Below are positions 3,323-55,277 of a DNA stretch of 64,000 bases, piece after piece. The position numbers and the translations under genes were made by a program. Origin of the DNA: a virus. Lineage: Duplodnaviria; Caudoviricetes. The notes under the pieces were generated by a model. That model worked only from the letters and a program-made list of their open reading frames with translations, ran no database searches and was not told the DNA's origin. The number at the start of each line of letters is the position of its first letter. Position 1 is the first letter of the stretch. The stretch is taken from positions 25,816-89,815 of the IMG/VR virus record IMGVR_UViG_3300037067_016086. One strand, 5' to 3'.

Positions 3323-4086
3323 CAGTGGCTCCCCCTCATCCGCAGCGTTTTACCGCGAGCCCCGCGCCAGTCCCTCGTCGTGAGGCACCGCTGGCAGATG
3401 TCCAGGTAGCGATCCCCATGGCTCAGCCGATCGTACACCGCCCGGATCTCTGGAGACTCCAGAACCTTGCGGAAACGGAAGATGTTCAGGTCGCCGAACG
3501 TGTGGCGCCGCTCCCAGTCGCGGCAGCACAGCCCCACGTGCCCGGTCCGGGTCACAATGAGATCCGTGAGCGGCGCGTAGCACGGCGTGGTCAGATGCAC
3601 CGGCGCCGCATCGTAGATGCCGAACACCTCCACCCAGTTGGAGTCGTAGATCGTCATAAAGTCGGGACGCGTGTCGAGAGAACGCAGCCGCTCCAACTCC
3701 TCCGCGCCGTACGCTGTCACAGCCAGGTGGTTCAGACCCACGCTGCGCAGGTCACGGATCAGATGCTCGTCCAGGGTCGTGCCGTTCGTCCAGATCAGCG
3801 TCTTGGCCCGAGGGACCGTTCGGTTCACGCGTTCCAGGAACCAGAGCAGCCGCGGGTCCATGAGCGGCTCCCCGTACTGGTGGAAGCTGATGCACCCAGC
3901 GAACCCTGCATCCCGGAGATCGTCGAGCACCTGGAACACCACGGCCGATGACAGGTTCTCGGGCGGACGCGCCGCCTCCAGATGCGCCGGGCAGCGCGGG
4001 TGCAAGTGCGACAGGTTGCAGCGGTTCGATAGCTCGAAGTTCACCCGGTCGAGTTTCTCGAAAGGATCTGCGCACCCGATGCTCAT
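3322..4086 (-). CDS. radical SAM/SPASM-domain protein with atypical Fe-S motif
   Basis: FELSNRCNLSHLHPRCP, YGEPL, TNGT, SPASM-like C...GHVGLCCRD...CQRC; ATGA start at 4086. Confidence 0.75.
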   Translation of the reverse strand: MSIGCADPFEKLDRVNFELSNRCNLSHLHPRCPAHLEAARPPENLSSAVVFQVLDDLRDAGFAGCISFHQYGEPLMDPRLLWFLERVNRTVPRAKTLIWTNGTTLDEHLIRDLRSVGLNHLAVTAYGAEELERLRSLDTRPDFMTIYDSNWVEVFGIYDAAPVHLTTPCYAPLTDLIVTRTGHVGLCCRDWERRHTFGDLNIFRFRKVLESPEIRAVYDRLSHGDRYLDICQRCLTTRDWRGARGKTLRMRGSH

Positions 4087-4136
4087 TCCGTCTCTCCGAT
4101 CAGCTTCTTCCAAACCCGGAGAGGGACCGCAACCCA
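4083..4136 (-). pseudogene. displaced original C-terminus of the resolvase
   Basis: WVAVPLRVWKKLIGETE* vs active WVCVPLRCWKKLMGESE* (13/17 identical). Confidence 0.9.
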
Positions 4137-4140
4137 GTAA

Positions 4141-4884
4141 TCAATCATGATTTTCTGGTTCATGCCCGTATCTCCGACGTTGTGCATCGCTCATCCTCTT
4201 GATCGTTTCCTTGGAAAATTTCCTTCCTTTGAAAATCTCACTCAACTTCTTCTTCTGGTCTTCCGATACGGGACGCCCACGTCGAGACTCTGACATCTTT
4301 CTCCTGGACTCATCGCTGTGATGCTTCCCAAGATTTGCAACCCTCAATTTCTCTCGGGTAGATTCGGCGATCTCCTTGCCCCTACATCTCTTCCCAAGTT
4401 CTCGAATTTGCTCACGCATCGCATCTGTCGCTATACCCTTGTGAGCAGCACTGTGATTCGCTCGCATCTCATCCGTCCAAACCCGCTTCCGATTAGCTTC
4501 CCCTACCGCCATCCGAACGTGATCTGGCTGCACCCATCCCGTCGTCCTGCCAGCCGTCGGGGACAGGTTGTATCCGCGTTCCACGGCCCCGGTATCGTCT
4601 ATGTGCCGTTGCTCCGCTTCCAGCAAAACATCCTCGGAAACGAGTTCTACGACCTCCACTGCGAACGAATCCTCCCCATATTTTGCCCACGCTGCCTGGA
4701 GGTAGTTATTGTGATGCTTTCCGCGCCGAAGCGCAGCACGGTGTTGATTCAGACGAAAACGAAGTCTCCCGGCACTCCCGATGTAGAACTTGCCGTTGAC
4801 CGTATTCTCGATCCGGTAGATCCCCGGCACGTTTGGGATGTGGTCGACGTTCACTCGGACTCTCCCATTAATTTTTTCCAGCAT
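4141..4884 (-). CDS. GIY-YIG homing endonuclease with NUMOD3-like repeats
   Basis: GIYRIEN...FYIGSA, R..QH, basic repeats KHHSDESRRKMS; AT-rich; start ATG 4884 or GTG 4854. Confidence 0.9.
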   Translation of the reverse strand: MLEKINGRVRVNVDHIPNVPGIYRIENTVNGKFYIGSAGRLRFRLNQHRAALRRGKHHNNYLQAAWAKYGEDSFAVEVVELVSEDVLLEAEQRHIDDTGAVERGYNLSPTAGRTTGWVQPDHVRMAVGEANRKRVWTDEMRANHSAAHKGIATDAMREQIRELGKRCRGKEIAESTREKLRVANLGKHHSDESRRKMSESRRGRPVSEDQKKKLSEIFKGRKFSKETIKRMSDAQRRRYGHEPENHD

Positions 4885-5207
4885 CGCAAGGGTACGCACA
4901 CCCAGTCCCTCTCTCCGTGTGCGCTGTTCGCCCCCCCCGCGATCTCGATGGCCAGCGCGGGCTCCTTGCCAGCCGCGGCAGCCTCCGCCGCGATTTTGTC
5001 CAGCCACGACTTCTTGATGCTCAGGCTCGCGTGCACGGTCCTCTTGCACTCGATGAGGAAGTGGTCGGCCAGCACGTCACCCTTCGCGAACTTGGACGCG
5101 CCACTCCCCGCCTGCCGGTGTCCTCGCACCTCGCGCGCCACGAGCCGCTCCTGCGCCTCCGGAGACTTCGCGTCGGGGAACAGGACGTGCGGACGATGAC
5201 GCGTCAC
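4851..5207 (-). CDS. Holliday junction resolvase, PD-(D/E)XK (Hjc-like)
   Basis: GSGA..KGDV...FLIECKRT motif. Confidence 0.8.
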   Translation of the reverse strand: MTRHRPHVLFPDAKSPEAQERLVAREVRGHRQAGSGASKFAKGDVLADHFLIECKRTVHASLSIKKSWLDKIAAEAAAAGKEPALAIEIAGGANSAHGERDWVCVPLRCWKKLMGESE

Positions 5208-9641: not shown

Positions 9642-11177
9642 TTACATTGTGCAGCAGGTTTTGTAAAACCTTTCCCGCCGAGCAGCCATTCCGCGGAGGC
9701 GCGGGATGCGCTCATCGACGACATCCGTCACGATCGGTTCTGGCTTGCTGGTGCACCTCCCCGCCCTCCATGGGCAGTAGTGCACGCACTCCGACGACGG
9801 TACGCACTCGCGCTGCACGCGGCCCGTTCCCTGTTGGACATCGCTGATCGGCGTGGTGAACATGATCACGTCCAGCGCCGGGATGTCGAGCCCCTCCAGG
9901 ACCATCTGCTGTGTGGCGAAGATCGCGTTGGCGCTCTCCGCCCGGTCGAGGTCCTCCTCGGTCCGGTCCGCGAGCTTGGGATCGCCCTTCCGGTGCGACT
10001 TGGTCGTCGTGCTCCACACCTCGCCCGTGAACCACTGCCCGGTGTACGCGTCCAGGACGGGAACGAACGGCAGATCGAGGCTGCGCAGGATGCGACCAGT
10101 CTGGTCCATCATGTCCCGCAGGTGGTCCAGCCGCGAACTCACGACGATGATCTTGCGCTCATTTCGGACGGCCTCGACGATGTCGTCGACCAGTGACCGA
10201 GTCCGCGTCGCGTCCGCGCAGAGCTGGTTGATGATCTGCGCGCTGTTGAGGTTGTCCACCTTGACCTTGTACTCGCCGCGCGAGATAGCCCGGAGCATCG
10301 TGTCGGTGTAGAGGCGTCGCAGCCGCGGCCGCACCGACTCCGTCGTCGCCTCGTAGGTCACCTGAGAGATGTGGTAGAAGAACACGTTCTCCGCGCCATC
10401 CCGGCGCCGCGGCGTGGCCGTCAGGCCCAGACGGTAGGCCGACGAGAACTTGGGCATGAGGCCGCCCCACGTGGCCGCTCCAAGCCGGTGCGTCTCGTCG
10501 GAGATCACCAGGCCGAAGGTGTTTTGGTACATCTCCGCCGGATAGCGATCCCCATCGTCCCGCGTCAGCGACTGGAGCAGGGCGATCACGAAGTCGGGCT
10601 CCTCTCCGTCCTTCGTCAACTCGTACTCGCACTTGTCCTGCCGGATGATGCCGATCCGCGCGTCGGGCAGGAAGCGCCGGATGCGCTTGGTCCACTGCCG
10701 CACGAAGAAGTCCTGGTGCACGAGGATGAGGGTGCGCCGCCCCAGCCGCCGCGCCACCTCCAAGGCGACCACCGTCTTGCCGAACGCGGGCTGTGCCTGG
10801 AGCAACGCACCGCCCCAGTTGCCGTCTCCACCGTCGCCCAGCAGGTCGCGCAGGAGAGCGTCGATCGCCGTCGCTTGCTCGGCGAAGCGCCCAGTGAACG
10901 TCGCCGTGGACGTCAAAGGACGCATGGGGGCGCCGTATGAGACCAGCACTTCCTCGGTGTTGTTCCCGTTCGCCATGCTCTTGTAGAAGCCGCGTGGCAC
11001 GCCGATCTTGTTGCGCGCTTCGTCGAGGCGATAGAGCTGAATCGGCTGCGGCGTCTCGTCCGCCACATCGCTGGTCTGCTTCGGCTGGATTGTCAGCCGG
11101 TCCACGATGTTGGATACCTGGCGAGGGGTCAGCGCCGCGCGATCGAGCCACGCGTATCCGGAGATCTCAACCTGCAT
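9642..11177 (-). CDS. SF2 (DEAD/ResIII-like) helicase
   Basis: AQPAFGKT, VISDETH, GLTATPRR, EGLDIP, QGTGRVQR. Confidence 0.9.
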   Translation of the reverse strand: MQVEISGYAWLDRAALTPRQVSNIVDRLTIQPKQTSDVADETPQPIQLYRLDEARNKIGVPRGFYKSMANGNNTEEVLVSYGAPMRPLTSTATFTGRFAEQATAIDALLRDLLGDGGDGNWGGALLQAQPAFGKTVVALEVARRLGRRTLILVHQDFFVRQWTKRIRRFLPDARIGIIRQDKCEYELTKDGEEPDFVIALLQSLTRDDGDRYPAEMYQNTFGLVISDETHRLGAATWGGLMPKFSSAYRLGLTATPRRRDGAENVFFYHISQVTYEATTESVRPRLRRLYTDTMLRAISRGEYKVKVDNLNSAQIINQLCADATRTRSLVDDIVEAVRNERKIIVVSSRLDHLRDMMDQTGRILRSLDLPFVPVLDAYTGQWFTGEVWSTTTKSHRKGDPKLADRTEEDLDRAESANAIFATQQMVLEGLDIPALDVIMFTTPISDVQQGTGRVQRECVPSSECVHYCPWRAGRCTSKPEPIVTDVVDERIPRLRGMAARRERFYKTCCTM

Positions 11178-11180
11178 TCG

Positions 11181-12254
11181 CTACCAGTCTTTGGCAGAGC
11201 GGCCGCCACCACCACCGCCGCCGCCGCGGAAGTCCTCATCGCCACGGAACTGCCCCTCGTCTCCCGGAGACGGACGGTTGCCGCCTCGCGACCCACCCAT
11301 CGGGAGCTGGCCCTGACCCTGCGGCCTGCCCTGGGGCTGCCCCTGGCCGCCGTACCCGGCCCCCTCGGTGCGCGTGTTGCGCCCCTGGTTGCCACCGTTC
11401 GAACCGCCGCCCGAGTCCCGGTCGTCCCCGGAGCCCGCGATCCAGCGAGCCATCTCCGCGTTCTCGAACAGGAGGCCCTCCTCCATGTCGCGGATCGTGT
11501 AGCGCTGGAACAGGTTCTCCTTGTCCACCTGCTCCTGGGTCGCACCGTAGTGCATCAGGTACTCTTTCATGTCCTCGACCGTGGCAGGGACCACCTTGCC
11601 CACGCGCTCCACGAACTCCCAGTTCTCTCCGTTGGTCGGCGACTTCTTCCCCAGGCGCTGCGTGTCGTACACGCACCCGGTGAGATCCCCGCGCCGAGCG
11701 TGCTGGTCCTCGAAGATGGCCATCGTGCCCGGCTTGTCCTTGCCGCCCTTCTTGGCCACCATGAGGCGCCGCTGGAACTGCGACTCGCGCGCCTTGCCCT
11801 CCTTGTCGGTCCACGGTTCCGGGTAGAGGATCGGAGCCCCGCCGTCCTCGTACTCCACGTACCCCATGTCGATGACCGTGAAGTAGGCACCGTAGCTCGG
11901 GTACCACTTGACATCGCCTTTGCCTTCGCAGGGCGCGCAGCGATCCGCAATCCGGTTCTGCTTGAGGCAGATCGCGTTGAAGACGCCGCGCGGCACGTTG
12001 GGCATCTTGAACGTGCTGTGCTCCCACAGGTAGAACGGCACGCTGATGATCATCACGCGCTTGCGCGCGGGCTTGTTCTTCCGGAAGGGGTTCTTCTCCG
12101 GCTCCGGCAGCTTGAAGCGGTACGGGCCCCGGTTCCCACCGCCACCGCCGCCACCGCCGCCACCACCGCTGTCCCCCTTGAACTGGCCGTAGTCCTCCGG
12201 CGCATCCCACCCGTCGTGTCCGAAACCGCTCTGCACGTGATCCCCGATACCCAT
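11181..12254 (-). CDS. probable single-stranded DNA-binding protein (gp32-like) with Gly-rich acidic tail
   Basis: zinc-type C..C, YFTVID, Gly/Gln/Asp-rich C-terminus, position between dnaB and helicase. Confidence 0.6.
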   Translation of the reverse strand: MGIGDHVQSGFGHDGWDAPEDYGQFKGDSGGGGGGGGGGGNRGPYRFKLPEPEKNPFRKNKPARKRVMIISVPFYLWEHSTFKMPNVPRGVFNAICLKQNRIADRCAPCEGKGDVKWYPSYGAYFTVIDMGYVEYEDGGAPILYPEPWTDKEGKARESQFQRRLMVAKKGGKDKPGTMAIFEDQHARRGDLTGCVYDTQRLGKKSPTNGENWEFVERVGKVVPATVEDMKEYLMHYGATQEQVDKENLFQRYTIRDMEEGLLFENAEMARWIAGSGDDRDSGGGSNGGNQGRNTRTEGAGYGGQGQPQGRPQGQGQLPMGGSRGGNRPSPGDEGQFRGDEDFRGGGGGGGGRSAKDW

Positions 12255-12386: not shown

Positions 12387-13244
12387 TCAGAACGGTACTG
12401 GATCGTCGTGGAACTCCTCTCCATCCTCGGGCGGTTTCTCCGCGAACTCCATCTCGTCGACCCGATGCGATCGAAACCGATCCTGCTCCGGGCGCAACCA
12501 GATCCCGCTAAAACGTTGACCAGTGCCTGGAATCTCTTCGGCAGGGATCGTGTACGCACAGATGGGCATGTCCGAATCGTCGAGCAGAATGCAGCACAGC
12601 AGGTCGAAGCGTTCCTTCCTCTTGTAGCTGAACCTCCAGCGCCGGAATCGGTCGGTGCGGGCCATGCGCGACGCCTTCACCTCCACCCGTTGCCCGTTCC
12701 ACTCCCCATCGTGCTCGCTGTACCAGAACGGCGACGGTTCGAAGCCAGGAAGCAGGCGCGCCGCCATCGCAAGACCGATCTTTCCTCGTACAACACGCGG
12801 GTCCGAATCATTTCCACCGGTCGTGTCGTGCCGACGGGTAAGACTCATGTGGGCTCCGCGTGGAAGGCACTCCAGGTTCTCCAGTCGGTTGTCCTGTCGA
12901 TTTCCGTTCCGATGATGAACATCACACCCAAATGGAACTGCACCGTGCGCCGCCTCATACATGAGGAGATGCTCTTTGACGAAACCATTGTGCGCGCGAC
13001 GGTGGCCGGGACTTTTGACGCGAACATAGCCATTGGTGTCCACGTAACGGAAGCACGTGTTCCGCCTTCCGGTGGGACGCCTTGGGACATTGTGTCGGAT
13101 CAATAGATTTCTTACCGTGGCAGGATCACACCCAAAACGATCACCGAGACTGGTCAATGTTTCCCCTGCGTCGTACAGGGCTAAGCATTGCGCCGAGGAT
13201 GCTTCGCTAAAATGGGACATCGTCCTTGAAACCTTCCTCGTCAT
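12387..13244 (-). CDS. HNH homing endonuclease (HTH + HNH), fused in frame to the displaced DnaB C-terminus
   Basis: EHLLM...DVHHRNGNRQDNRLENLE; ends DEMEFAEKPPEDGEEFHDDPVPF. Confidence 0.85.
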   Translation of the reverse strand: MTRKVSRTMSHFSEASSAQCLALYDAGETLTSLGDRFGCDPATVRNLLIRHNVPRRPTGRRNTCFRYVDTNGYVRVKSPGHRRAHNGFVKEHLLMYEAAHGAVPFGCDVHHRNGNRQDNRLENLECLPRGAHMSLTRRHDTTGGNDSDPRVVRGKIGLAMAARLLPGFEPSPFWYSEHDGEWNGQRVEVKASRMARTDRFRRWRFSYKRKERFDLLCCILLDDSDMPICAYTIPAEEIPGTGQRFSGIWLRPEQDRFRSHRVDEMEFAEKPPEDGEEFHDDPVPF

Positions 13245-43878: not shown

Positions 43879-43885
43879 ACCTGTA

Positions 43886-43914: not shown

Positions 43915-43921
43915 GCGGAAA

Positions 43922-45153: not shown

Positions 45154-45401
45154 GGCGCACCTCCTTCCGTCCCGGAATCGGGCGGCGCGCACTCCGTGGT
45201 CAGCATGCAGTTGTAGCCGCCTGCCGGGTCCGCGCAGCACGCGAACGCCGCGCCCTCGATCTCGGAGCAGTCCGCGATCAGCTCCCACTCGCCGCCCGAG
45301 CTGCACATCTCGGCGCGATCCCCGCTGCACCGCGTCTCGTTCTGCGCGCACTCCTCGCAGGCGCCCAGCAGGAACGCCAACACCACCAGTACCTTGATCA
45401 T
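45150..45401 (-). CDS. Cys-rich lipoprotein
   Basis: lipobox LLGAC; C...ETRCSG....C...G.W....C. Confidence 0.7.
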   Translation of the reverse strand: MIKVLVVLAFLLGACEECAQNETRCSGDRAEMCSSGGEWELIADCSEIEGAAFACCADPAGGYNCMLTTECAPPDSGTEGGAP

Positions 45402-45958: not shown

Positions 45959-45980
45959 CGCTATCCTCCTCGTCTCGAAG

Positions 45981-45996
45981 GCGAACACGTGTTCGC
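45981..45996. promoter_or_regulatory. 16-bp palindrome copy (perfect)
   Basis: GCGAACACGTGTTCGC, 9 nt downstream of tRNA-Val. Confidence 0.85.
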
Positions 45997-46005
45997 TCTC
46001 CCCTG

Positions 46006-46079
46006 TGTGCCCGACTGGACTCGAACCAATGACCTCAACCTTGTCACGGTTGCGCTCTAACCAACTGAGCTACGGGCAC
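46006..46079 (-). tRNA. tRNA-Val(GAC), no encoded CCA
   Basis: cloverleaf GTGCCCG..CAACC-GTGACAA-GGTTG..TTCGAGT..CGGGCAC-A, followed by CAG. Confidence 0.95.
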
Positions 46080-46086
46080 AACACCT

Positions 46087-46284
46087 TCATTCCATCTCCC
46101 TGACCATCCCGCAGCGTCTGCACCGCGGTTCGCCGTCGATCTCAACCCACACGTGATGCCCCTCGACCGCCGCCGACGCGCCGCCGATCACGACCACCTC
46201 GCGTCGGCAGGACCGGTCCAACCGGCTCAGAGCCGCGTGCAGCGTGCACGCGTACCACAACCTGAACTCGTCGAGAGCACTCAT
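46087..46284 (-). CDS. hypothetical protein
   Basis: ORF between promoter and tRNA; CRRCG. Confidence 0.5.
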   Translation of the reverse strand: MSALDEFRLWYACTLHAALSRLDRSCRREVVVIGGASAAVEGHHVWVEIDGEPRCRRCGMVREME

Positions 46285-46333
46285 CGCGAAACCCTTTTCA
46301 TCTCCGGTATCGCACCGGGAACCAAGCTCTCGG

Positions 46334-46362
46334 ACCCTACCTCATTGCGTCGCGTTTGTCAA
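46334..46362 (-). promoter_or_regulatory. sigma70-type promoter
   Basis: TTGACA-N17-TAGGGT; the -35 contains the remnant stop codon. Confidence 0.7.
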
Positions 46363-46418
46363 CACCCGTCTCGAATCTGCGCGCAGGCTTCGATCGCACG
46401 CTCGCACGTCTCCTCGTC
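46359..46418 (-). pseudogene. displaced original C-terminus of the DUF3268 protein
   Basis: DEETCERAIEACAQIRDGC* vs active SEERCDEVVKICKEII... Confidence 0.7.
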
Positions 46419-46459
46419 GACAATTTTGCATTTCCGCCGATATGTCATATGATGTGTCA

Positions 46460-46918
46460 ATGATTAAACCTACTGAAAAAACATGCACAAAATGTGGTTC
46501 CAAGGGACCGTTCTACTTCAACAAGTCGATGGGCTGCTACCGTAGCCGGTGCATCAAATGCCACAATGAAAGTAGCCGCGATTGGGCGAAAAAGAATCCG
46601 GAACGGAGGCGCCAAATTGGAAAGAAACACGACAACAAAAGACATAAGTTCAAGAGAATTTTCGAAAAGTACAAACTCACAGAATCCGAATTTGACAAGA
46701 TGATGGAACGACAAGGATTCAAGTGCTGCATTTGCAAACGCACACTCGATCGCAAAAGCCGACACACTGTCGTGGATCACTGCCACAAAACGAACCGTGT
46801 TCGCGGCATCCTTTGTCGAAACTGCAACACTGGGATCGGGCAATTTCAAGACAATCCAGTTCTGCTACTTCGAGCCATAGAGTACCTCACGGAATCAGCT
46901 TCCGATCCTTTGAAATAA
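46460..46918 (+). CDS. recombination endonuclease VII-like homing endonuclease
   Basis: Q...CCIC....VVDHCHKTNRVRGILCRNCNTGIG; AT-rich; opposite strand. Confidence 0.9.
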   Translation: MIKPTEKTCTKCGSKGPFYFNKSMGCYRSRCIKCHNESSRDWAKKNPERRRQIGKKHDNKRHKFKRIFEKYKLTESEFDKMMERQGFKCCICKRTLDRKSRHTVVDHCHKTNRVRGILCRNCNTGIGQFQDNPVLLLRAIEYLTESASDPLK

Positions 46919-47918
46919 TTTCCTTGCATATCTTAACAACCTCATCGCACCGCTCTTCCGAGAACTGCCCGATGTGGCACTGGGTCTTTGGGATTCCCAG
47001 TATCTGCGCCAGCTCCATGTACGCCTGCGTGCGCGTCATACGACCCTCTCGCCAGATCGAGTCGAAGGCGTCGTGCGCCCGGATGCGTGCGCGCCGCATG
47101 CCCTCGGTCGCCAGCACGCCCAGCGGGGTCTGTGTGCCCGCGTGGCACCCCACGTACGCGCATCCCTGGGGGCACCGCCAGAACATCTTCGCGTGCAGGT
47201 CCGGCCGGTACGGGTAGACGGCCGCACCGGTCACCAGCTCGGGCTTCTGCCCGCACACGGGACACGCGGTCGGGGGTGGAAGGCACGCGTCGTTGTCCCG
47301 CAACCGTTGGACGTTCTTGTTGCGCGCAGCCTCCGCTCCCCGGCGCCGCGGGCACACGGCCTTGTGCGCGACCATGGCAGCTCGGTTCGGCAGGACAGCC
47401 TTGCAGCGCGGGCACGTCACGCGTTGCGACGCCCTCCACATCTCGGTCTCAATCCGCGTCAGCATCGGTGTCGGGTCGAGCAGTTGCGGCGGCCGCGGTC
47501 CGTCGAGAGGCCACACCGAGCCGACCGCCCGGTAGCCCATCTCGTACAGCTCCAGGTGCAGCATGCTGAGGGGCTTGCCCTTGTCGTTCCGTAGAACGCG
47601 CATCACACGGCCGATCACGCTGCCCTCCTCGATGAACTCCCACTGCTCGCACTTCGTCTCGATCTCACCGTAGATGATCACGCCGCTGTCGCCCTCGACC
47701 ATGACGCATTCCGTGGGCAGCCACCAGGGACAGCCCGCCAGCGGACCCGTGAATGGCTCCACCCCCACCACGATGCCGTCCTCGATCGCCAGGACCGGCG
47801 TGCCCACCGATGCCACCAGGTCGACGCCCGTGTGCACGTCGAACTTGCGCCGGTTCCCGAAGGCCCCGTAGGCAGGCGGGCTGGGCACGAGCACAGGGTC
47901 GTACAGAGGGAAGCGCAT
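46887..47918 (-). CDS. M23 peptidase fused to zinc finger and DUF3268-like domain
   Basis: HTGVD...HLE (M23); CPRC..H..C; CPVCG..YVGCH..PLG.LA..R..AH..FD..W..CHIG.F. Confidence 0.75.
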   Translation of the reverse strand: MRFPLYDPVLVPSPPAYGAFGNRRKFDVHTGVDLVASVGTPVLAIEDGIVVGVEPFTGPLAGCPWWLPTECVMVEGDSGVIIYGEIETKCEQWEFIEEGSVIGRVMRVLRNDKGKPLSMLHLELYEMGYRAVGSVWPLDGPRPPQLLDPTPMLTRIETEMWRASQRVTCPRCKAVLPNRAAMVAHKAVCPRRRGAEAARNKNVQRLRDNDACLPPPTACPVCGQKPELVTGAAVYPYRPDLHAKMFWRCPQGCAYVGCHAGTQTPLGVLATEGMRRARIRAHDAFDSIWREGRMTRTQAYMELAQILGIPKTQCHIGQFSEERCDEVVKICKEIISKDRKLIP

Positions 47919-48187
47919 CACCCATCCTGCGGCTTCGTGGGCATGTGGAATGCGCGGAACTCTATCATCTGGATCTCGCGATCCATGAGGAGGTCGTACA
48001 CCTCCATGACCTTCTGCATGTCCCGGCCGTCGTGCGCCTGGAACTGCACCCACGCCTCCCAGGCCGTCTTGGCGTACACCGGGTAGTCGTTGTGATCGTA
48101 GGTGTCGGTGCACACGATCATGAAGATCGCGCCCTTCTCCACGCCTTCATCGAACCACTTTCGGAGATCTTCCTTCTTAGTGCTCAT
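47918..48187 (-). CDS. conserved phage hypothetical protein
   Basis: IVCTDTYDHNDYPVY...QKVMEVYDL. Confidence 0.65.
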   Translation of the reverse strand: MSTKKEDLRKWFDEGVEKGAIFMIVCTDTYDHNDYPVYAKTAWEAWVQFQAHDGRDMQKVMEVYDLLMDREIQMIEFRAFHMPTKPQDG

Positions 48188-48348
48188 CGCTTCATCCTTG
48201 TCTCTGAACGCACCCTCCGCGCCTGGCAGTGGGGGCAATCGAACGTGACCACGTCCTCTCCCTCTGGGCCCTCCGAGATGTTGTACGGGCTCGCTTCGCG
48301 TGCGTTGAACTCGCGGCCGCACTTCGGGCATCGGATCAGCAGGATCAC
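48184..48348 (-). CDS. small zinc-ribbon protein
   Basis: CPKCG...CPHC; coupled both sides. Confidence 0.6.
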   Translation of the reverse strand: MILLIRCPKCGREFNAREASPYNISEGPEGEDVVTFDCPHCQARRVRSETRMKR

Positions 48349-48719
48349 ACGGGCACCGATTCGCTCTCGTGCTTCTCGGCAAGCGCGACCTCCGTGGCCG
48401 CCTCCATCGATGCGATCTCCTCCACCGTCTGGTCCCAGCGCTCGACCTCCTGGAACGTCAGCCCCCGGCAGGAAGCGTACGCGATCTCGCTGTCCATCGC
48501 GTAGTCCGCCGACGCCTCCTCGGGATTGCAGCCCACGGTGCTCTCGCATCCCGCGCACGCTCGCCCGCCACACGGGTCCCCCTCTATCACGTCCTCCAGG
48601 GCGGACCGCGCGCCGTCCAGGGCCGTCGACAGCGACCGCAGCGCTTCCACGACGTCCTTGCTCGGCTTGCCAACGATCCTCGCCTGCCAGGTCCCGTTCT
48701 TCTTTTCGATCCTCAGCAT
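48345..48719 (-). CDS. hypothetical protein
   Basis: GGAGG RBS downstream of promoter. Confidence 0.6.
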   Translation of the reverse strand: MLRIEKKNGTWQARIVGKPSKDVVEALRSLSTALDGARSALEDVIEGDPCGGRACAGCESTVGCNPEEASADYAMDSEIAYASCRGLTFQEVERWDQTVEEIASMEAATEVALAEKHESESVPV

Positions 48720-48760
48720 CTCGCACCTCCCGTCACGCATCGCGCGTGGCATCTGACCAG

Positions 48761-48789
48761 AGCTTAACCGATCCGATGGCGTTTGTCAA
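48761..48789 (-). promoter_or_regulatory. sigma70-type promoter
   Basis: TTGACA-N17-TAAGCT. Confidence 0.75.
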
Positions 48790-49121
48790 CACCCTCGGCA
48801 GTCGCAGCCATCCGCGTGTCCGCGCTCGGGAGCGTCCGCGTGGAAGCTCTGCCCGCAGCCGCCGCAGCGCCGGACCTCGGTCAGCCCCTTGAGGAACTCG
48901 CGCCGCATCTCCGCGATCCGCTTCTCGCGCGGCATGAACTCGGGCAGGCGCGGGTTGAACATCACGTCCGCCGCGTGCCGCTCCTCCTGCTCCTGGGCCC
49001 ACGTCTCGAAGTTCGGGCGCATCTCGTTTGCGAGGAAGTGGCAGGCCAGGCGGAACGTCGGCGCGTCCACATCGAACGGACCGCAGTCGCCGAAGTTCGG
49101 GTTGTTGTTGTAGATCATCAT
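48786..49121 (-). CDS. hypothetical protein
   Basis: ATGA-coupled to cca; C-terminal CGGC...CDC..C. Confidence 0.6.
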   Translation of the reverse strand: MMIYNNNPNFGDCGPFDVDAPTFRLACHFLANEMRPNFETWAQEQEERHAADVMFNPRLPEFMPREKRIAEMRREFLKGLTEVRRCGGCGQSFHADAPERGHADGCDCRGC

Positions 49122-50566
49122 GCCTCGTCCCTCCTTTGAAGTTTCACGGTGGCCCACCCGATCGCGTCGTCCAGGTCGTCGAACTCGCCGTCCATCTGCG
49201 CCTCCAGAGCTTCCCGGAGGAGCGCCCCCATGTCCCTGCCGGGCTTCATGCCCAGAGCTACCAGGTGGCGTCCCAGGAGGAGACCCGGCTGCGGCTTGTC
49301 CTGCACCGCCAGGTCCCGCGCCAGCGCGACGTGCAGAGCCATCGGGTCCCCGCCGCCCACCGGCGGCCGTGCCCAGGCGTCCGCGCGCGCGAGCTGTCCC
49401 AGCGTCACGATGCTCGCCGGGGCCAGCCGGGCCGCCAGGCGCCGCACGAACCGCTTGGACGGCGTGGGGCAGCTCAGGTGCGCCATGTGCTCGCGCACGA
49501 GCGGCACGATCCGATCCCGGAACTCCGCGGGCATCCCGATCGCGTCGCAGAAACCCGGGCACAGATCCGCGCTGGCGTCCTCGTGGCCCTTGGCCGTGAT
49601 GCGCCCCTCGGCGTCGGCCACCGTCGTGCTCGCCTTGCCGACGTCGTGGAGGAGCGCCGCGAAGACCAGCGAGATCCGCTCGCCGTCGTCCAGGTGGTCC
49701 GCCGTCGCGATCCGCGCGGCCGCGTCCACCGCCAGGATCGTGTGCCGCCAAACCGAGCCCTCGGGGTGATGCTTCGGATCTTGCGGCAACCCCACGATGC
49801 CCCAGAGCGAATCGAAGAGGATGTGCCACCCGATGTCAGCCAGGGCTTCCAGGCCCATGCCCGGGTGAGCCGAGAGCGCCCACTTCCGCCACTCGCCCCA
49901 GAGCCGCGAGGAGGGCAGAGTCGCCGCCGCGCTCCGCATGCCCTTGCACACGTCCGCCGTCTCCGGCGCCACCCGCATCTCGAACCGCGCCGCGAACTGC
50001 ATGGCCCGCAGGGGGCGCAGCGGGTCCTCGGCGAAGCGATCCGACACGTGCCGGATCACCTTCTTCTCCAGGTCCGCGATGCCGCCGAAGTGGTCGATCA
50101 CCTCGCCGGTCGCGCAGTCCAGCATCAGCGCGTTCCAGGTGAAGTCGCGCCGCTTGCACGCCTCGCTGGGGTCCAGCGTGGGGTCCACCGTCACGGCGAA
50201 GTCCCGGTGCCCGCGCCCCGTCGCGACCTCGCTCCGCGGCAGCGCGAAGTCCACCTCGTGGCCGTCCGGCGTCCAGAGCTTCGTGATCCCGAAGCTCGCG
50301 CCAACCGTCTCCACCCGCCCGCACGTGCTGAGCACAGACTCCAGGTCCGCGGCGCCGATCCCGTACACCTCGAAGTCGAAGTCCTTCACCGGCGTGCCCA
50401 GCAGCAGGTCGCGCACCGCGCCGCCAACCAGGTAGGGGAGCGCTCCGAAACCGCGAAGGCGCAGAACCGCCTCTTCCACCGCGCGCGGCAACTGGAATCC
50501 CTCTATCCGCCTCCACCGCATGTCGTCCTCCGGGCTCCCGCGGCGCATCGCGCCCCGCATCTCCAC
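49118..50566 (-). CDS. cca: class II tRNA nucleotidyltransferase (CCA-adding) with HD domain
   Basis: LVGGAVRDLL, DFDFE, RRDFT.NA, EDPLR.LR..F..RF, HHPEG..H, LLHDVGK; start 50521-50566. Confidence 0.92.
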   Translation of the reverse strand: MEMRGAMRRGSPEDDMRWRRIEGFQLPRAVEEAVLRLRGFGALPYLVGGAVRDLLLGTPVKDFDFEVYGIGAADLESVLSTCGRVETVGASFGITKLWTPDGHEVDFALPRSEVATGRGHRDFAVTVDPTLDPSEACKRRDFTWNALMLDCATGEVIDHFGGIADLEKKVIRHVSDRFAEDPLRPLRAMQFAARFEMRVAPETADVCKGMRSAAATLPSSRLWGEWRKWALSAHPGMGLEALADIGWHILFDSLWGIVGLPQDPKHHPEGSVWRHTILAVDAAARIATADHLDDGERISLVFAALLHDVGKASTTVADAEGRITAKGHEDASADLCPGFCDAIGMPAEFRDRIVPLVREHMAHLSCPTPSKRFVRRLAARLAPASIVTLGQLARADAWARPPVGGGDPMALHVALARDLAVQDKPQPGLLLGRHLVALGMKPGRDMGALLREALEAQMDGEFDDLDDAIGWATVKLQRRDEA

Positions 50567-50569
50567 CTC

Positions 50570-50597
50570 ATAATGCGCCCTTGTTGCCGTTTGTCAA
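50570..50597 (-). promoter_or_regulatory. sigma70-type promoter
   Basis: TTGACA-N16-CATTAT. Confidence 0.65.
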
Positions 50598-50599
50598 CA

Positions 50600-50815
50600 C
50601 CCCGGAGGTCGATTTCCGGGCAAGATCGTGTGCGTCCACCCGGAACAAGATTAGATCTCTGCTTACCGGTGATCCCCCCGGCGCTCGGAGCGCTGCCCCC
50701 CTCTGGGGGGATTCGTCTGTGCCGGGGATCTTCGAGGGACATCGGAAGCCAGGAGGGAACCGATCAGGGGCAGCGGTCTGGGGCCTTGGCCCCCCGCCGT
50801 AGAACGGCTCCCCCC
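50600..50815 (-). ncRNA. candidate structured non-coding RNA
   Basis: ORF-poor interval with nested stems (see findings); TTGACA at 50839-50844. Confidence 0.4.
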
Positions 50816-50910
50816 ATGTGCCGGATCGTGAGATCGCGTGTCAAGCGGTATCTTTTAGAGCCCCGTATCGATGCCGAACCTTGTGGGTATTCGGAGAGGG
50901 GGAAGTCGCA

Positions 50911-50932
50911 TGTTTCAATCGATCTTGAAACA
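50911..50932. repeat. 8-bp inverted repeat, possible operator
   Basis: TGTTTCAA-TCGATC-TTGAAACA. Confidence 0.5.
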
Positions 50933-50960
50933 AGTGTCGGTTCGGACGGGTTCTGTTGCT

Positions 50961-50976
50961 GCGCACACGTGTTCGT
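50961..50976. promoter_or_regulatory. 16-bp palindrome copy (2 mismatches)
   Basis: GCGCACACGTGTTCGT, intergenic. Confidence 0.55.
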
Positions 50977-50993
50977 CCTCGGAGATCGCGGGA

Positions 50994-51614
50994 CTAGATC
51001 ACGCGCTCGAAGGAGATCACGAACACCTCAGGATCGTCGGCCCATCGCGCCCCACCCTTGCGCTTCCCGTTCAGGTCGTCCCAGAGGGCCGCGAACCAGC
51101 GCACGTAGCTCTGCACGCCGTAGGTGTAGAAGATCGGCTGCCCGCTCATCTCGGGCGCGCCCTCCCGTAGCGCATCGTCCGGCGTGATCTCCCGGAGACG
51201 CTCCCGGCGGATCGCCGTGATCCGGACGCGGTCCCGGATGAAGGGGTCGGGCAGGAAGCGGCCGGACCGGCGCCGCGGTGGTTTCTGCGACGCCATGCCC
51301 TCTCCCTGCCGCATCAACCCCACCGTCACCTTGGAGAGATAGTCTACCTCCTCATCCTTTGACAGCGGACGCTCGTGGATCACGCCGTCTTGGTACTGGC
51401 AGCGGAGCATCGCGATCCCGGCGTACTCCAGCTCACCGTGACCCTTCCCCAGCGAATGGAAGTACGGGCGTTTCTCCACCCACAACCGGTGCGGCTCCCC
51501 GATCCCGAGCACATCCCCGACCTTGTACGGGCACTTCCCCAACCTGCGCGTCATGGTCTTCCGGTCGGCCCGGATCGCCTCCCGCATCTCCTCCACAAAC
51601 GAGATCCGCTTCAT
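50994..51614 (-). CDS. ASCH-domain protein
   Basis: I.F...M..AI...RKT.TRR, CPYKVGD, ITAIRRERL..IT..DA..EG, W...W..P.V.VI.F. Confidence 0.8.
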   Translation of the reverse strand: MKRISFVEEMREAIRADRKTMTRRLGKCPYKVGDVLGIGEPHRLWVEKRPYFHSLGKGHGELEYAGIAMLRCQYQDGVIHERPLSKDEEVDYLSKVTVGLMRQGEGMASQKPPRRRSGRFLPDPFIRDRVRITAIRRERLREITPDDALREGAPEMSGQPIFYTYGVQSYVRWFAALWDDLNGKRKGGARWADDPEVFVISFERVI

Positions 51615-51868
51615 GAAACACGCTCCCTGCTCCAGGTGCGAGCCATCCCCAGACCGGACTTCTTGAGCGCTCGCCCGTTGGGGCACACGCACGGACCCTC
51701 GTACCCGATCCGATGCGTGCGCGCCGGGTTGAGCGACTCCGTGTGGATGATTCCGTTGTTTCCGCACAGCGCGCACAGGCCCGTCTCGATGTCGATGAAC
51801 TCGTACCAGTCCACCTTCTTCGTGCGCGCGGATCGTGCCGCGTAGACCATCTCCTCCAGCTTGCTCAT
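51611..51868 (-). CDS. zinc-binding hypothetical protein
   Basis: CALCGN...CVCPNG. Confidence 0.6.
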   Translation of the reverse strand: MSKLEEMVYAARSARTKKVDWYEFIDIETGLCALCGNNGIIHTESLNPARTHRIGYEGPCVCPNGRALKKSGLGMARTWSRERVS

Positions 51869-52062
51869 GTCGTCTCCTCCGTGCAGCCACAGACGGACGC
51901 GTACCCGCACCCCGTGGCATCGCAGGCCCGACAGATCCAGTCCTCGTAGCCGTCGCTCACGCGCCCGCTGCCGTGGCACAGCGAGCAGTCGTAGTGCTCG
52001 TTGCACGGGAACCGGGACCTGTCCCCATCGCACCGATCCCGCTCATCATCGCGCAGAGCCAT
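51865..52062 (-). CDS. small DnaJ-type zinc-finger-like protein
   Basis: CSLCHGSG...CRACDATG. Confidence 0.6.
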   Translation of the reverse strand: MALRDDERDRCDGDRSRFPCNEHYDCSLCHGSGRVSDGYEDWICRACDATGCGYASVCGCTEETT

Positions 52063-52335
52063 CTACCCCGCCTTCAACTGCTGGTTCAGCACATAGGCAG
52101 CCTGGAGTCCCTCGTGCTTCAGCGGCTCCGCCACCCACTCCAGCGTCCAGTTCCCGGCCCCGAAGTGCGCGTCGTAGCGGTCGTGCTTCCAGTCCGATCC
52201 GATACCCAGATCGTGCGGCACGAAGCCGATGTCGGAGCAGCAATGCTGCGCCAACAAGTGCCCGTCGTCGCCGATGGCCATGGCGCTCAGCCACCCGGGC
52301 GAGCCACCGTTGCAGAAGCAGTAGATCGTGTGCAT
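52063..52335 (-). CDS. hypothetical protein
   Basis: AGGAGG RBS right after the rtcB remnant stop. Confidence 0.7.
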   Translation of the reverse strand: MHTIYCFCNGGSPGWLSAMAIGDDGHLLAQHCCSDIGFVPHDLGIGSDWKHDRYDAHFGAGNWTLEWVAEPLKHEGLQAAYVLNQQLKAG

Positions 52336-52346
52336 CTCGTCCTCCT

Positions 52347-52457
52347 TTACTCCGCCTTCAAATTGAGGATCGGCCGGATCTCCTCGACCACCTCGACCGT
52401 CGGCCCGATGGCCGTCCGGATCGCGTTCGCGTCCTTGTAGGCCGCGGGTCCGGACTC
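52347..52457 (-). pseudogene. displaced original C-terminus of RtcB
   Basis: ESGPAAYKDANAIRTAIGPTVEVVEEIRPILNLKAE* vs active EAPSAYKNADDIRAAIKPTVEVIEEIKPILNCKAI*. Confidence 0.95.
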
Positions 52458-52461
52458 GTTG

Positions 52462-52490
52462 TTGACATGATCCTTGTAAGCATCTACAGT
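52462..52490 (+). promoter_or_regulatory. cassette promoter for the double-HNH gene
   Basis: TTGACA-N17-TACAGT. Confidence 0.75.
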
Positions 52491-52520
52491 GTTCATGCCA
52501 AATGCAAAAAGGACATCATC

Positions 52521-53210
52521 ATGATCTGTGGTAAGTGCAAAATGGACAAGAACACAAATGATTTCCACCAGGGCCAACTTCACGGCGGGTATTGCAAAGA
52601 CTGCATGCGCATCTACGGTCAGCAATACTACCGCAACAACAAGAACCACCACTTGCAGATCACGAACCAAATTCGCCGAGAACGAAGCGCCCGGCGGCGT
52701 GAATTTGTCCAGAAGATGAAGACCATCCCATGCGCCGACTGCGGACACGTTTTCCACTCCTTCGTCATGGATCTTGACCATCGCAACCCTGCGTCCAAAT
52801 TGGCGAGCATTCAATATCTGCTGTATTCCGCATCGGAAAAGATATTCCACGAAGAGCTGCTGAAATGCGATGTTGTTTGCGTCAACTGCCACAGAGATCG
52901 GGAACAGAAACGGTACTTGATCAAGCATCCAATCCCGACCCACTTGTCCCCTCGGCAAACATGGAACAAGGCAATAAAAGATCTCGCCAAGTCCAATCCA
53001 TGCACCGATTGTGGAGGTACATTCCACTCGTGGCAGATGGATCTGGATCATGTTCGGGGTGACAAAGTTGGCCGCGTTGGAAGCCTCTCCCACAAAGTGT
53101 CCACCGATGTTTTGGAGCGAGAGATCGAAAAATGCGAACCTGTCTGCGCAAACTGTCACAGAGTTCGCACCTTTACACGCAATCCTCCCCGGAAACATCT
53201 TACCTCCTAG
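52521..53210 (+). CDS. endonuclease with two tandem HNH domains
   Basis: C.DCG..FH...MDLDH...KC..VC.NCHR twice; AAGGA RBS. Confidence 0.85.
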   Translation: MICGKCKMDKNTNDFHQGQLHGGYCKDCMRIYGQQYYRNNKNHHLQITNQIRRERSARRREFVQKMKTIPCADCGHVFHSFVMDLDHRNPASKLASIQYLLYSASEKIFHEELLKCDVVCVNCHRDREQKRYLIKHPIPTHLSPRQTWNKAIKDLAKSNPCTDCGGTFHSWQMDLDHVRGDKVGRVGSLSHKVSTDVLEREIEKCEPVCANCHRVRTFTRNPPRKHLTS

Positions 53211-54517
53211 ATCGCCTTGCAATTGAGAATCGGCTTAATTTCTTCGATAACTTCCACCGTTGGTTTGATGGCAGCCCTAATATCGTCTGCATTTTTGTAA
53301 GCGGAAGGCGCCTCGTCCAGCGGGATGCAGCTCGTGTAGATCCCTTCCATGCTGGCCCGCGCCGCCACCGGGTCCAGCTCCCTCTTGGCCTGAGACCGGC
53401 TCATGAGGCGGCCCGCCCCGTGCGGCGCCGACTCGTTCCAGTCCTTGTTCCCAAGGCCGCGGCAGATCCAGCTGCCGTCCCGCATGTTGAACGGGATGAT
53501 CAGCCGGTCTCCGAGCGCCGCGCGCACCGCCCCCTTGCGGATGACCAGGTCCCTCGGGTCGATGTAGTTGTGGACCGTCTCGATCAGATCCTGGCTGCCG
53601 ACGTCCAGAACCCCGAGCACCTCGGCCAGGATGGATCGGCGGTTCTGAGCCGCGTAGATCTGCGCGAAGACCATGTCCTCCACGTAGGCGAACAGGTCCT
53701 CGCCGCGCAGCGACTCCAGACCGCTGGGCACCGCCACCAGGGCCCGCTGCGTCTCCTTGTACCGCTTGATGCGCTTGTCGATCTCGTGGTTCGGCGACGA
53801 CCTCCGGATCACCTCGATCTCGGACTGGTACTCGCCGGTCTTGAAATCCAGCAGCTGCTTGGCGGCCAGTCCCTGGTGGTACTTGCAGATCTTCTCGCCC
53901 AGCTGCCGCGACCCGCTGTGGATCAGCACCCAGGCCGTCCCGGGTTCGGCGCCGAGGGCCACCTCGATGAAGTGGTTGCCGCCCCCCAACGATCCGATCG
54001 ATCGCTGCGCGCGCCCGTACTTCATCCCCACCCGCTTGCAGAGGTCCTTGAAGACACCCTGCGAGGCGCCCCAGTCCAGCGCGCGGAACCCTCCGCCCGC
54101 GAACCGGTCGTTCAGCTTGCGGCGTACCACGGTCATCAGCGCGTGCGTCCCGTCGTAGAAGGGATCGTCGTCCAGCAGCTCGTGGCAGTCGTCGGTCCGC
54201 ACCTCGTGCGCGAACGGAACCCGGTCTCGGATCTCGCGATCGAGACGCTCCAGGCTGATGCCAGCGCGCCAGGGAACCCGCGCCGCCAGCACGCCGCAGC
54301 CAATGTCGACGCCCACTATTCCAGGAACTACGGCATCCCCGAGTGGCATTGTAAACCCTATCGGAGCGCCAGCCCCGGCATGGACGTCCGGCATCATCAC
54401 GATGCGCCCAGTGAAAGCCGGGGAATTCACGATCTGCGTCAGCTGCGCCATCGTGGCACTGTCGACCGTTTCAGCAGTCACGGTCACTGTCGTGTATTTC
54501 CCTTGAATATCGAACAT
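53207..54517 (-). CDS. rtcB: RtcB RNA 3'-phosphate/5'-OH ligase with both termini replaced
   Basis: MPDVH, VGVDIGCG, GSLGGGNHFIE, IHSGSR, HNY, HGAGR.MSR, DEAP.AYK. Confidence 0.95.
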   Translation of the reverse strand: MFDIQGKYTTVTVTAETVDSATMAQLTQIVNSPAFTGRIVMMPDVHAGAGAPIGFTMPLGDAVVPGIVGVDIGCGVLAARVPWRAGISLERLDREIRDRVPFAHEVRTDDCHELLDDDPFYDGTHALMTVVRRKLNDRFAGGGFRALDWGASQGVFKDLCKRVGMKYGRAQRSIGSLGGGNHFIEVALGAEPGTAWVLIHSGSRQLGEKICKYHQGLAAKQLLDFKTGEYQSEIEVIRRSSPNHEIDKRIKRYKETQRALVAVPSGLESLRGEDLFAYVEDMVFAQIYAAQNRRSILAEVLGVLDVGSQDLIETVHNYIDPRDLVIRKGAVRAALGDRLIIPFNMRDGSWICRGLGNKDWNESAPHGAGRLMSRSQAKRELDPVAARASMEGIYTSCIPLDEAPSAYKNADDIRAAIKPTVEVIEEIKPILNCKAI

Positions 54518-54529
54518 CGCCACCCCTCC

Positions 54530-55006
54530 TTACCATCCTCCAAAATGCTCAACGCGGTGACAACAAGAGCAGACCAGATCGCACTTCTCTGCCTCCACCA
54601 CGATGGCCTTCCACGCACGGTTCACGAGCTGTGGAATGTTCAGCGCGAAAACCTTCACGGCAGGATCTCGATGATGGAAGTCGAACGCTGCACCGTTCTT
54701 CCCATCGTATTTCATGCCACACAGCACGCAGAAACCTCCCAGGAGAAGGATCAATTTGACCTTCCGACTTCGGCCATACTCCAACTTGTAGCCAATCCGA
54801 ACCTCCCGATTTCGATGGTTCCACTCGCGCTTGTACTGCGTTGGGTTCTCGTACTTTCTGTTGTTGTGCCCAGAAACGTACCGCTTCTGCCTCCCGTACG
54901 GGTCCATCGACTTGATGAGTTCCCCGCATCCACAGGCACATGCGATCGTGGGAGCCGCTTCGAAAAGTCGCTCATTGCGTCGGTCCTTGCACTCTTTCCT
55001 CGTCAT
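54530..55006 (-). CDS. HNH homing endonuclease
   Basis: CACGCG; C..CG...FDFHHRDP..K...EAEKCDLVCSCCHR.EH; own TTGAGA-N16-TATACT promoter and GGAGG RBS. Confidence 0.85.
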   Translation of the reverse strand: MTRKECKDRRNERLFEAAPTIACACGCGELIKSMDPYGRQKRYVSGHNNRKYENPTQYKREWNHRNREVRIGYKLEYGRSRKVKLILLLGGFCVLCGMKYDGKNGAAFDFHHRDPAVKVFALNIPQLVNRAWKAIVVEAEKCDLVCSCCHRVEHFGGW

Positions 55007-55076
55007 GGGTACCTCCAGATCGGAGTATACCACATCCGTTGTCTATCTCAAAAAAAATGGACGATATTGGTTGTTC

Positions 55077-55277
55077 GATGTTCGGGATGATCGCCTCGCC
55101 CAGCGGCATCGTGAACCCGATCACCGATCCCGCGCCCGCGTGCGTGTCCGGCATGATGGCCACCGGCCCCGTGAAGGCCGGGTGGTTGACCATGCCCGTG
55201 ATCTGCGCGATGCAGCTGGCCTCAACCTGGTCCGCGTAGACCGTCGCCGTCGTGTACTTGCCCTCGATCGTAAACAT
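55077..55277 (-). pseudogene. displaced original N-terminus of RtcB (67 codons; frame runs on to 54972)
   Basis: MFTIEGKYTT...MPDTHAGAGSVIGFTMPLGEAIIPNI, 41/67 identical to the active start. Confidence 0.95.

Follow-up and report, generated by a model that had tools for sequence, protein, structure and literature searches.

The window analyzed here, the final 64 kb of the 89.8-kb IMG/VR phage contig IMGVR_UViG_3300037067_016086 (CheckV completeness about one half), contains eight nuclease genes that lie inside working genes without splicing, each of which carries a diverged copy of the gene end that it displaces. The duplicated ends belong to an Hjc-type resolvase (C-end), DnaB (C-end), an MT-A70 methyltransferase (N- and C-ends), an RNA ligase (C-end), a DUF3268 protein (C-end), and RtcB (N- and C-ends). 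The copy that adjoins the gene core is called here the in-use end, and the copy on the far side of the nuclease gene the stranded end. All eight pairs named in the original prediction, which had been made from the sequence alone, were present at their predicted positions, each pair flanking a nuclease gene. The events fall within 51 kb, among replication and RNA-repair genes; such duplicates are absent from the remaining 25.8 kb of the contig, so that "genome-wide", as the prediction had it, is an overstatement. None of these events is found in a syntenic relative (L043/L044) over the 29.5 kb compared. The window has a guanine-plus-cytosine (GC) content of about 65%, and nearly all of its genes are on the minus strand, with a GC content at third codon positions (GC3) of 0.8-0.9; about a dozen islands of lower GC, 48-55%, are scattered among them. 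No megablast match to 20 kb of the window was found in the GenBank phage collection.

Four of the pairs were among the top local matches in a six-frame self-BLASTP with composition correction, and those of DnaB C, MT-A70 N, MT-A70 C, and DUF3268 C were found by reading the junctions. All eight outscore every control window of the same size (450-1400 windows across the 64 kb), and at all eight events the stranded terminus is kept beyond the nuclease as a duplicate, the DUF3268 case being marginal. Pfam recognizes none of the short stranded fragments except the RtcB N-end. The two copies of an end are 45-69% identical in nucleotides and 36-88% identical in residues, and about two thirds of the identical residues are encoded by different codons. 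Over 226 aligned codons, the pooled GC3 is 0.63 for the in-use ends vs 0.88 for the stranded ends, with 76 vs 20 discordant codons (p = 7e-9). Thus, the predicted switch from high to low GC3 holds for the pooled ends and at the five events with a strong contrast (RtcB N, RtcB C, RNA ligase, MT-A70 C, and DUF3268), but the contrast is small at Hjc, DnaB, and MT-A70 N. The low GC3 of the replacement ends could reflect adaptive recoding, although a foreign ancestry of lower GC may explain it equally well.

For three of the eight events, namely, both ends of RtcB and the RNA ligase, uninterrupted homologues identify the stranded end as native and the in-use end as foreign. At the same three, the cassette-free alleles that had been predicted, in which the stranded end joins directly to the gene core, were found. 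The RtcB gene (53207-54523, by Pfam) is flanked as follows.

52347-52445, minus strand: stranded original C-end of RtcB (30/33 residues and 86/99 nucleotides match the uninterrupted gene of contig L002).
52521-53210, plus strand: tandem-HNH endonuclease gene, convergent with RtcB, stops overlapping (phrog_2255, E = 6e-42; phrog_3106, E = 2e-39).
53207-53305, minus strand: in-use replacement C-end of RtcB, beginning after ...PLDEAP.
54320-54517, minus strand: in-use replacement N-end of RtcB, spanning 66 codons and preceded by an AAGGAGG ribosome-binding site of its own.
54530-55033, minus strand: HNH endonuclease gene at the RtcB N-end (phrog_2255, E = 1e-17).
55080-55277, minus strand: stranded original N-end of RtcB, 66 codons, GC3 0.95, original start context intact.

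The self-BLASTP matches extend over 85 residues for the N-end pair (E = 1e-25) and 35 residues for the C-end pair (E = 2e-9). RtcB is uninterrupted in L002, a 205-kb phage contig, to which the stranded N-end matches at 58/66 residues and 171/198 nucleotides; its match to the homologue P0002 is 64/66 residues. Taken together, the stranded ends share 257/297 nucleotides with L002 vs 181/297 for the in-use ends (p = 1e-12). L002 and L003 are without RNA ligase, DUF3268, and MT-A70 genes and serve the RtcB comparison only. The 12 closest RtcB homologues (P0002-P0013) all have ends of the stranded type, matching 57-64 of the 66 N-terminal and 26-32 of the 33 C-terminal residues, and match the in-use ends at 36-42/66 and 22-25/33 residues. 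RtcB is also uninterrupted, with the same neighbours, in the syntenic relative, which comprises 49 kb.

Public landfill and groundwater metagenome assemblies also carry DNA of the window, and contigs of four runs (X1-X4, of which X3 and X4 come from other studies) were compared over positions 35601-55600. The junctions of the RtcB N cassette are crossed with zero differences in all four runs (X1 record 8, X2 record 16, X3 record 24, X4 record 32), and those of the C cassette in two (X1 record 8, X2 record 15). In X3, an independent landfill metagenome, the cassette-bearing contigs have a depth of about 106-117, and a second strain is present at about half that depth. One X3 contig, at depth 65, skips 54318-55077 with a 2-nucleotide ambiguity, which is exactly the predicted 760-nucleotide N cassette at 54320-55079. 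Other X3 contigs, at depth 53, skip 52424-53306, the C cassette, and the 23 intervening letters encode the native AAYKDAA; a C-cassette-free RtcB contig with the same skip is found in X2. Since contigs of the same population skip each cassette with exact joins, the two RtcB cassettes occur in nature as insertion polymorphisms whose empty sites are clean. Two of the eight events thus vary between presence and absence in a natural population; further joins in X3 (e.g., 46364 to 48880 and 40914 to 41263) have unresolved intervening sequence or short anchors and were not used.

Two other RtcB homologues are of interest in themselves. P0011, on a contig of 1.4 kb, stops exactly at ...PLDEAP, which may be an assembly break at the insertion site, and P0035 contains an intein bearing HNH_3. 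Nucleases appear to have targeted RtcB repeatedly.

The RNA ligase gene (43922-45160; PF09414, PF21189) is interrupted near its 3′ end by a longer insert.

43922-44023, minus strand: in-use replacement C-end of the RNA ligase (PF09414, PF21189 gene), with about 14 residues fewer than the native end.
41402-43921, minus strand: RNA ligase insert, 2.5 kb.
43705-43878, 42350-43708, and 41979-42353: insert open reading frames (ORFs), encoding a Zn-ribbon protein, a 452-residue protein, and a 124-residue protein, respectively.
41401-41964, minus strand: HNH-like endonuclease in the insert (phrog_374, E = 2e-20).
41255-41398, minus strand: stranded original C-end of the RNA ligase with a lysine-rich extension, GC3 0.97.

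The C-end pair matches over 33 residues at 88% identity (E = 2e-15); 29 of the 33 residues are the same, 18 of these 29 through different codons. The uninterrupted ligases (P0121-P0125) read ...ADNI|REGCVVKP...ERKKKGKQANC..., which is the core of the window gene followed by the stranded end, and the stranded end, including the lysine-rich extension, matches the C-ends of P0122 and P0123. The in-use end has unique substitutions, and its stop comes 14 residues early. These homologues came from the protein database; a scan of viral contigs with the RNA ligase gave no relative. The 452-residue Cys-rich product of the insert is 92% identical to that of a gene that lies elsewhere in the syntenic relative (L043:2916-4274), which suggests that the cargo moved with the nuclease, as a nuclease-associated translocation. 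The copy in the relative follows a gene for a 305-residue HNH-like protein. The whole RNA ligase block, 41255-45174, is absent from the syntenic relative, where its flanking genes abut.

Three further C-ends are duplicated in Hjc, DnaB, and the M23 + DUF3268 gene.

4851-4904, minus strand: in-use C-end of the Hjc-type resolvase (Pfam Hjc; gene 4851-5207).
4141-4884, minus strand: GIY-YIG + NUMOD3 homing endonuclease gene, ATG at 4884 (PF01541, E = 4.5e-9; PF07460, E = 3.8e-6).
4083-4136, minus strand: stranded original C-end of Hjc (score 77 vs a null maximum of 35).
13207-13275, minus strand: in-use C-terminal tail of DnaB (gene 13207-15804; score 51 vs a null maximum of 34).
12459-13244, minus strand: HNH_3 endonuclease, without its own stop, reading into the stranded DnaB tail (PF13392, E = 2e-14; PHROG HNH).
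12387-12458, minus strand: stranded original acidic tail of DnaB (...EEFHDDPVPF), continuous in frame with the HNH ORF.
46887-46958, minus strand: in-use C-end of the M23 + DUF3268 gene (46887-48113; PF11672, E = 3.6e-34, to profile position 120/121).
46442-46918, plus strand: gene of Endonuclease VII type that converges on the DUF3268 gene and overlaps its end (PF02945, E = 2.6e-24; phrog_2633, E = 2e-33).
46359-46415, minus strand: probable stranded C-end of DUF3268, the weakest case (score 38 vs a null maximum of 37).

The two Hjc ends agree at 13 of 17 residues, nine of the 13 in different codons (self-BLASTP, 17 residues, E = 1e-6), and the stop of the stranded copy abuts the start of a radical-SAM/SPASM gene. 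In the DUF3268 gene, the GC3 drops to 0.4-0.5 in the in-use C-end, and the stranded copy, with GC3 0.79, is identical to it at 5 of 14 residues; the C-end of the DUF3268 protein of the syntenic relative is equally distant from both. The DnaB gene also hosts a true intein with LAGLIDADG_3 (13906-15036), so that two different mobile elements reside in one gene. The middle of the HNH_3 ORF at 12387-13244 (about codons 170-230) shows GC3 values like those of the resident genes (0.9-1.0) and contains an E-V-K motif, and this ORF may be a composite.

The MT-A70 methyltransferase (32990-33556 by Pfam) resembles RtcB in having a nuclease gene at either end.

34278-34319, minus strand: stranded original start of MT-A70 (MSGFDVIAMDPPWT), cut right behind DPPW (score 48 vs a null maximum of 38).
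33569-34267, minus strand: EndoVII/HNH-like endonuclease at the MT-A70 N-end (phrog_3322, E = 4e-25; phrog_1035, E = 3e-17).
33532-33576, minus strand: replacement start of MT-A70 (GTG, GRYDVICADPPWS, TGA), in a frame other than that of the core, from a reading of the junction.
32990-33532, minus strand: MT-A70 core and in-use C-end, the latter at about 32990-33070 with GC3 0.45 (PF05063, E = 4.5e-25, from profile position 19).
32354-32989, minus strand: EndoVII/HNH-like endonuclease at the MT-A70 C-end (phrog_1035, E = 2e-29).
32271-32348, minus strand: stranded original C-end of MT-A70 (...DGIDGRDIREVLREM...), with the start of the next gene directly after it (score 42 vs a null maximum of 35).

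The stranded C-end resembles the C-end of the homologue L008; the MT-A70 homologues as a whole are 37-58% identical, which is too distant to assign the native end. Two homologues that appeared to be without DPPW were rejected as counterexamples, one having an in-frame stop and the other a DPAW variant. The stop, in the homologue at L012:2965-3000, lies just past DPPW, where the near-identical twin L011 has Gln, and may be due to stop-codon reassignment or to a nonsense mutation. The block 31510-34319, which holds the MT-A70 gene with its nucleases, an 82-residue gene, and a His-Me finger nuclease gene, is absent from the syntenic relative, where the flanking genes abut. The invaded RNA ligase and MT-A70 genes are thus themselves accessory.

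At every site, a nuclease gene lies between the two copies, as judged by Pfam and PHROG. Pfam identifies GIY-YIG + NUMOD3, HNH_3, and Endonuclease_7, and the other five were recognized through PHROG HNH/EndoVII families (E = 1e-17 to 6e-42); three of them, at 32354-32989, 33569-34267, and 41401-41964, are EndoVII/HNH-like paralogues. The claim that the nucleases belong to unrelated families was too strong, since all but the GIY-YIG enzyme share one beta-beta-alpha-Me superfamily. As anticipated, they occur on both strands and at either gene end: the Endonuclease_7 gene at 46442-46918 and the tandem-HNH gene at 52521-53210 are on the plus strand, and the RtcB and MT-A70 genes each provide an N-end event. 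The cassettes are compact. Each nuclease gene either has a start and a stop of its own or lies on the strand opposite to its host gene, the HNH_3 gene at DnaB being the exception, and the non-coding flanks measure tens of nucleotides. At Hjc, the start of the GIY-YIG gene and the replacement end overlap; at MT-A70 N, the replacement GTG overlaps the stop of the preceding nuclease gene; and the stops of the convergent nuclease and host genes overlap at RtcB C and DUF3268. At RtcB N, the AAGGAGG site comes directly after the HNH stop and ahead of the new RtcB start, so that the replacement brings both a new ribosome-binding site and a start codon. The insertion points coincide with conserved motifs, VGVDIGCG and DEAP.AYK in RtcB, EG.V.K in the ligase, and DPPW in the methyltransferase. 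Conserved-motif targeting is typical of homing endonucleases. Relatives of the HNH nuclease of RtcB N occur in phages of 30-40% GC; at two of their loci, short flanking repeats were tRNA-related or ambiguous, and these were not counted as further cases.

What process could give rise to this arrangement? We consider it likely that the cassettes are mobile units, each consisting of a free-standing homing endonuclease gene and, carried along with it, a diverged version of the terminus of its target gene. In a mixed infection, the nuclease would cut an allele without the cassette, in or close to a conserved motif of the coding sequence (IPNI|VGVDIGCG and DEAP|AYK in RtcB, ADNI|REG.VVK in the ligase, and DPPW in the methyltransferase). 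The break would then be repaired from the cassette-bearing genome, with the gene core as one arm and the native end, with the downstream or upstream gene, as the other. The sequence copied in would be the replacement end plus the nuclease gene for a C-end, and the nuclease gene, a ribosome-binding site, and the replacement start for an N-end. The resident gene would remain a complete ORF, making RNA or protein splicing unnecessary, and the native end would be left untranslated or, as in DnaB, fused to the nuclease. The invaded allele presumably could not be cut again: the insertion splits its target, and at 7-13 of the 30 nucleotides beside the junction, the replacement half is unlike the native one, so re-cleavage would plausibly be prevented.

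Several points weigh against this account. Cleavage of the empty site by the nucleases and their target specificity are predictions from sequence, and the repair pathway, the immunity to re-cleavage, and the expression of the hybrid genes are likewise conjectural. The contrast in GC3 is weak at Hjc (0.65 vs 0.71), DnaB (0.64 vs 0.77), and MT-A70 N (0.82 vs 0.91). For Hjc, DnaB, MT-A70, and DUF3268, no close relatives were found that would tell the native from the foreign end. Among the 40 nearest RtcB homologues examined, none resembles the in-use ends and the donor was not found; the donor of the replacement ends must therefore be distant. The 2.5-kb ligase insert, with its three extra genes, resembles a one-off translocation more than a tidy homing unit. 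Finally, the in-frame repair of the target gene that had been predicted is seen at seven of the eight events, where the replacement terminus is in frame and completes the protein, but not at the MT-A70 N-end. There, the replacement (GTG...DPPWS, TGA) is in another frame and its TGA overlaps the ATG of the core, whereas in the homologues, DPPW continues straight into the core. As assembled, the catalytic motif of MT-A70 is separated from the enzyme, and the gene is not repaired by this event; the shift is either a real inactivating one or a one-base assembly error.

Some of these observations would also fit a different explanation, in which the duplicated ends are functionless scars of one-off illegitimate insertion or of mosaic recombination between diverged phages, with the nucleases marking the boundaries of exchange. 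Nuclease genes are known at the boundaries of phage genetic exchange (PMC10448857), the ligase cargo sits elsewhere in the relative, the MT-A70 N-end event left its gene out of frame, and the RtcB homologues and HNH relatives included no other genome in which one of these cassettes occupies the corresponding site. However, one architecture recurs in eight independent events, with at least five nuclease families and with insertions at conserved catalytic motifs. The overlapping start and stop codons of the nucleases and replacement ends suggest long association, and both RtcB cassettes are polymorphic in one population with base-exact joins. We therefore regard scars as an unlikely explanation of the whole set.

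It is far less probable that the nucleases lie inside self-splicing introns or inteins, with the ends as exons or exteins that are joined later. Phage homing endonucleases are often found in group I introns, DnaB does contain a true LAGLIDADG intein, and the DPPW of MT-A70 is separated from its core. Against this, an Rfam search of 52.5 kb gave no intron family at the gathering threshold or at E up to 1, the only matches being three transfer RNAs (tRNAs), and in seven of the eight cases, the host gene can be read as a complete ORF without splicing, which bears out the original description of the invasion as splicing-free. In none of the eight does the cassette lie in frame inside the host ORF, and Intein_splicing and LAGLIDADG_3 match only the separate DnaB intein. 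Furthermore, the two copies of an end cover the same stretch of the protein and are not complementary parts of it; the non-coding flanks of the nuclease ORF at MT-A70, only about 25-40 nucleotides, are too short for a ribozyme core; and two nuclease genes run antisense to their host genes. The remaining explanation, that an assembler made chimeric joins between co-occurring strains, had been named beforehand as grounds for refutation, and although two strains of the phage do co-occur in at least one sample, we exclude it with near certainty because separately assembled contigs, including those of other studies, reproduce the RtcB N and C junctions without differences, and copies that are 45-69% identical in nucleotides have no common assembly k-mers.

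The proposed homing of free-standing endonuclease genes with a replacement gene end has a close parallel in the mobile endonuclease ORFs (mORFs) of fungal mitochondria, which carry a foreign C-terminus (Allomyces macrogynus atp6; Glomus atp6, atp9, cox2, and nad3; PMC3630166, citing Paquin et al. 1994). In both cases, an endonuclease ORF lies near the 3′ end of a resident gene, a diverged C-terminus is in frame with the core, and the native C-terminus, nearest to the sequences of relatives, is retained downstream as a duplicate. Several nuclease families are involved in both, and the occasional in-frame fusion to a nuclease in the mORFs is comparable to DnaB/HNH here. However, the present elements reside in a high-GC double-stranded DNA phage, their nucleases are GIY-YIG and HNH/EndoVII rather than mainly LAGLIDADG, two of them replace 5′ ends and introduce a new ribosome-binding site and start codon, and antisense nucleases are possible. 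There are also eight events in 51 kb, and one insert carries 2 kb of cargo.

Intronless homing in T4-like phages by the free-standing SegF, SegG, SegB, and MobE (PMC2988022) is similar in its intron-free GIY-YIG/HNH genes, in presence/absence polymorphism among relatives, and in the co-transfer of flanking gene sequence. In contrast to the cassettes here, the T4 elements are intergenic, and flanking markers are co-converted without duplication; the intragenic cases in T4-like phages (Aeh1 nrdA, T4 gene 39/60) are split genes with no replacement end or stranded original, and the same review also covers intron-borne nucleases (PMC2988022). Fractured genes, such as nrdA of Aeh1 with mobE and the split inteins with an endonuclease between their halves (PMC2988022, PMC2677866), also have an intronless endonuclease gene within a coding region at a functionally critical motif, but their two polypeptides reassemble or trans-splice, whereas here, one ORF is kept by means of a second copy of its end. 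The MT-A70 N-end as assembled is the sole case in the window that looks split. Homing endonucleases borne by group I introns or inteins likewise target conserved catalytic motifs and disrupt the target site by insertion while the host gene stays functional; here, function is kept by coding duplication instead of RNA or protein splicing, and the Rfam search gave no ribozyme. A lexical search of the open-access literature, which is not proof of absence, gave no phage report of nuclease-borne replacement gene ends. These comparisons support the conclusion that the mitochondrial mORF strategy operates in a phage, extended to 5′ ends, antisense nucleases, and several nuclease families.

Other mobile elements are found nearby. 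A TnpB-only element of the IS605 family at 36440-37883 (OrfB_IS605, Cas12f-like TNB, HTH) lies between a 126-residue gene and an SNF2 gene; it is skipped exactly by an X3 contig (12-nucleotide ambiguity), and its neighbours abut in the syntenic relative. In the region 30785-32028, a His-Me finger nuclease gene (31501-32028) abuts a metallophosphoesterase gene whose first 60 residues have a lower GC3 and 50-63% identity to the relative vs 93% mid-gene. The start of this gene may have been replaced with no stranded copy left behind. At 27836-28795, within an AT-rich island, a free-standing DUF723/HNH-type nuclease gene (phrog_559, E = 2e-49) adjoins two tRNA genes, and no duplicated gene end was detected with it. 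Upstream of the window, a dense internal repeat array is located at 10400-11700 of the contig.

These cassettes represent a further route by which selfish nucleases can reside inside phage coding genes, beside introns, inteins, and split genes, and natural alleles with an empty site support the case. Many such events can build up in a single phage lineage, and none is present in a syntenic relative where the two overlap. The stranded ends will lead gene callers and pangenome tools to report small orphan ORFs or nuclease fusions, and termini with a different history from that of their cores may mislead phylogenies. The pairs of native and replacement junctions are candidate target and immune sites for eight uncharacterized nucleases. 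We suggest, tentatively and with somewhat more doubt than confidence, that terminal-replacement homing is a general and overlooked lifestyle of phage homing endonucleases, which would move as compact, co-evolved units of replacement end and nuclease at either end of a gene. If so, units at 5′ ends would supply their own ribosome-binding site and start, and neither introns nor inteins would be needed for nucleases to colonize catalytic motifs in essential genes. Termini would be swapped between distant phages, cargo genes would be dragged to new loci, and stranded ends beside nuclease genes would be a widespread, mis-annotated feature of phage genomes.

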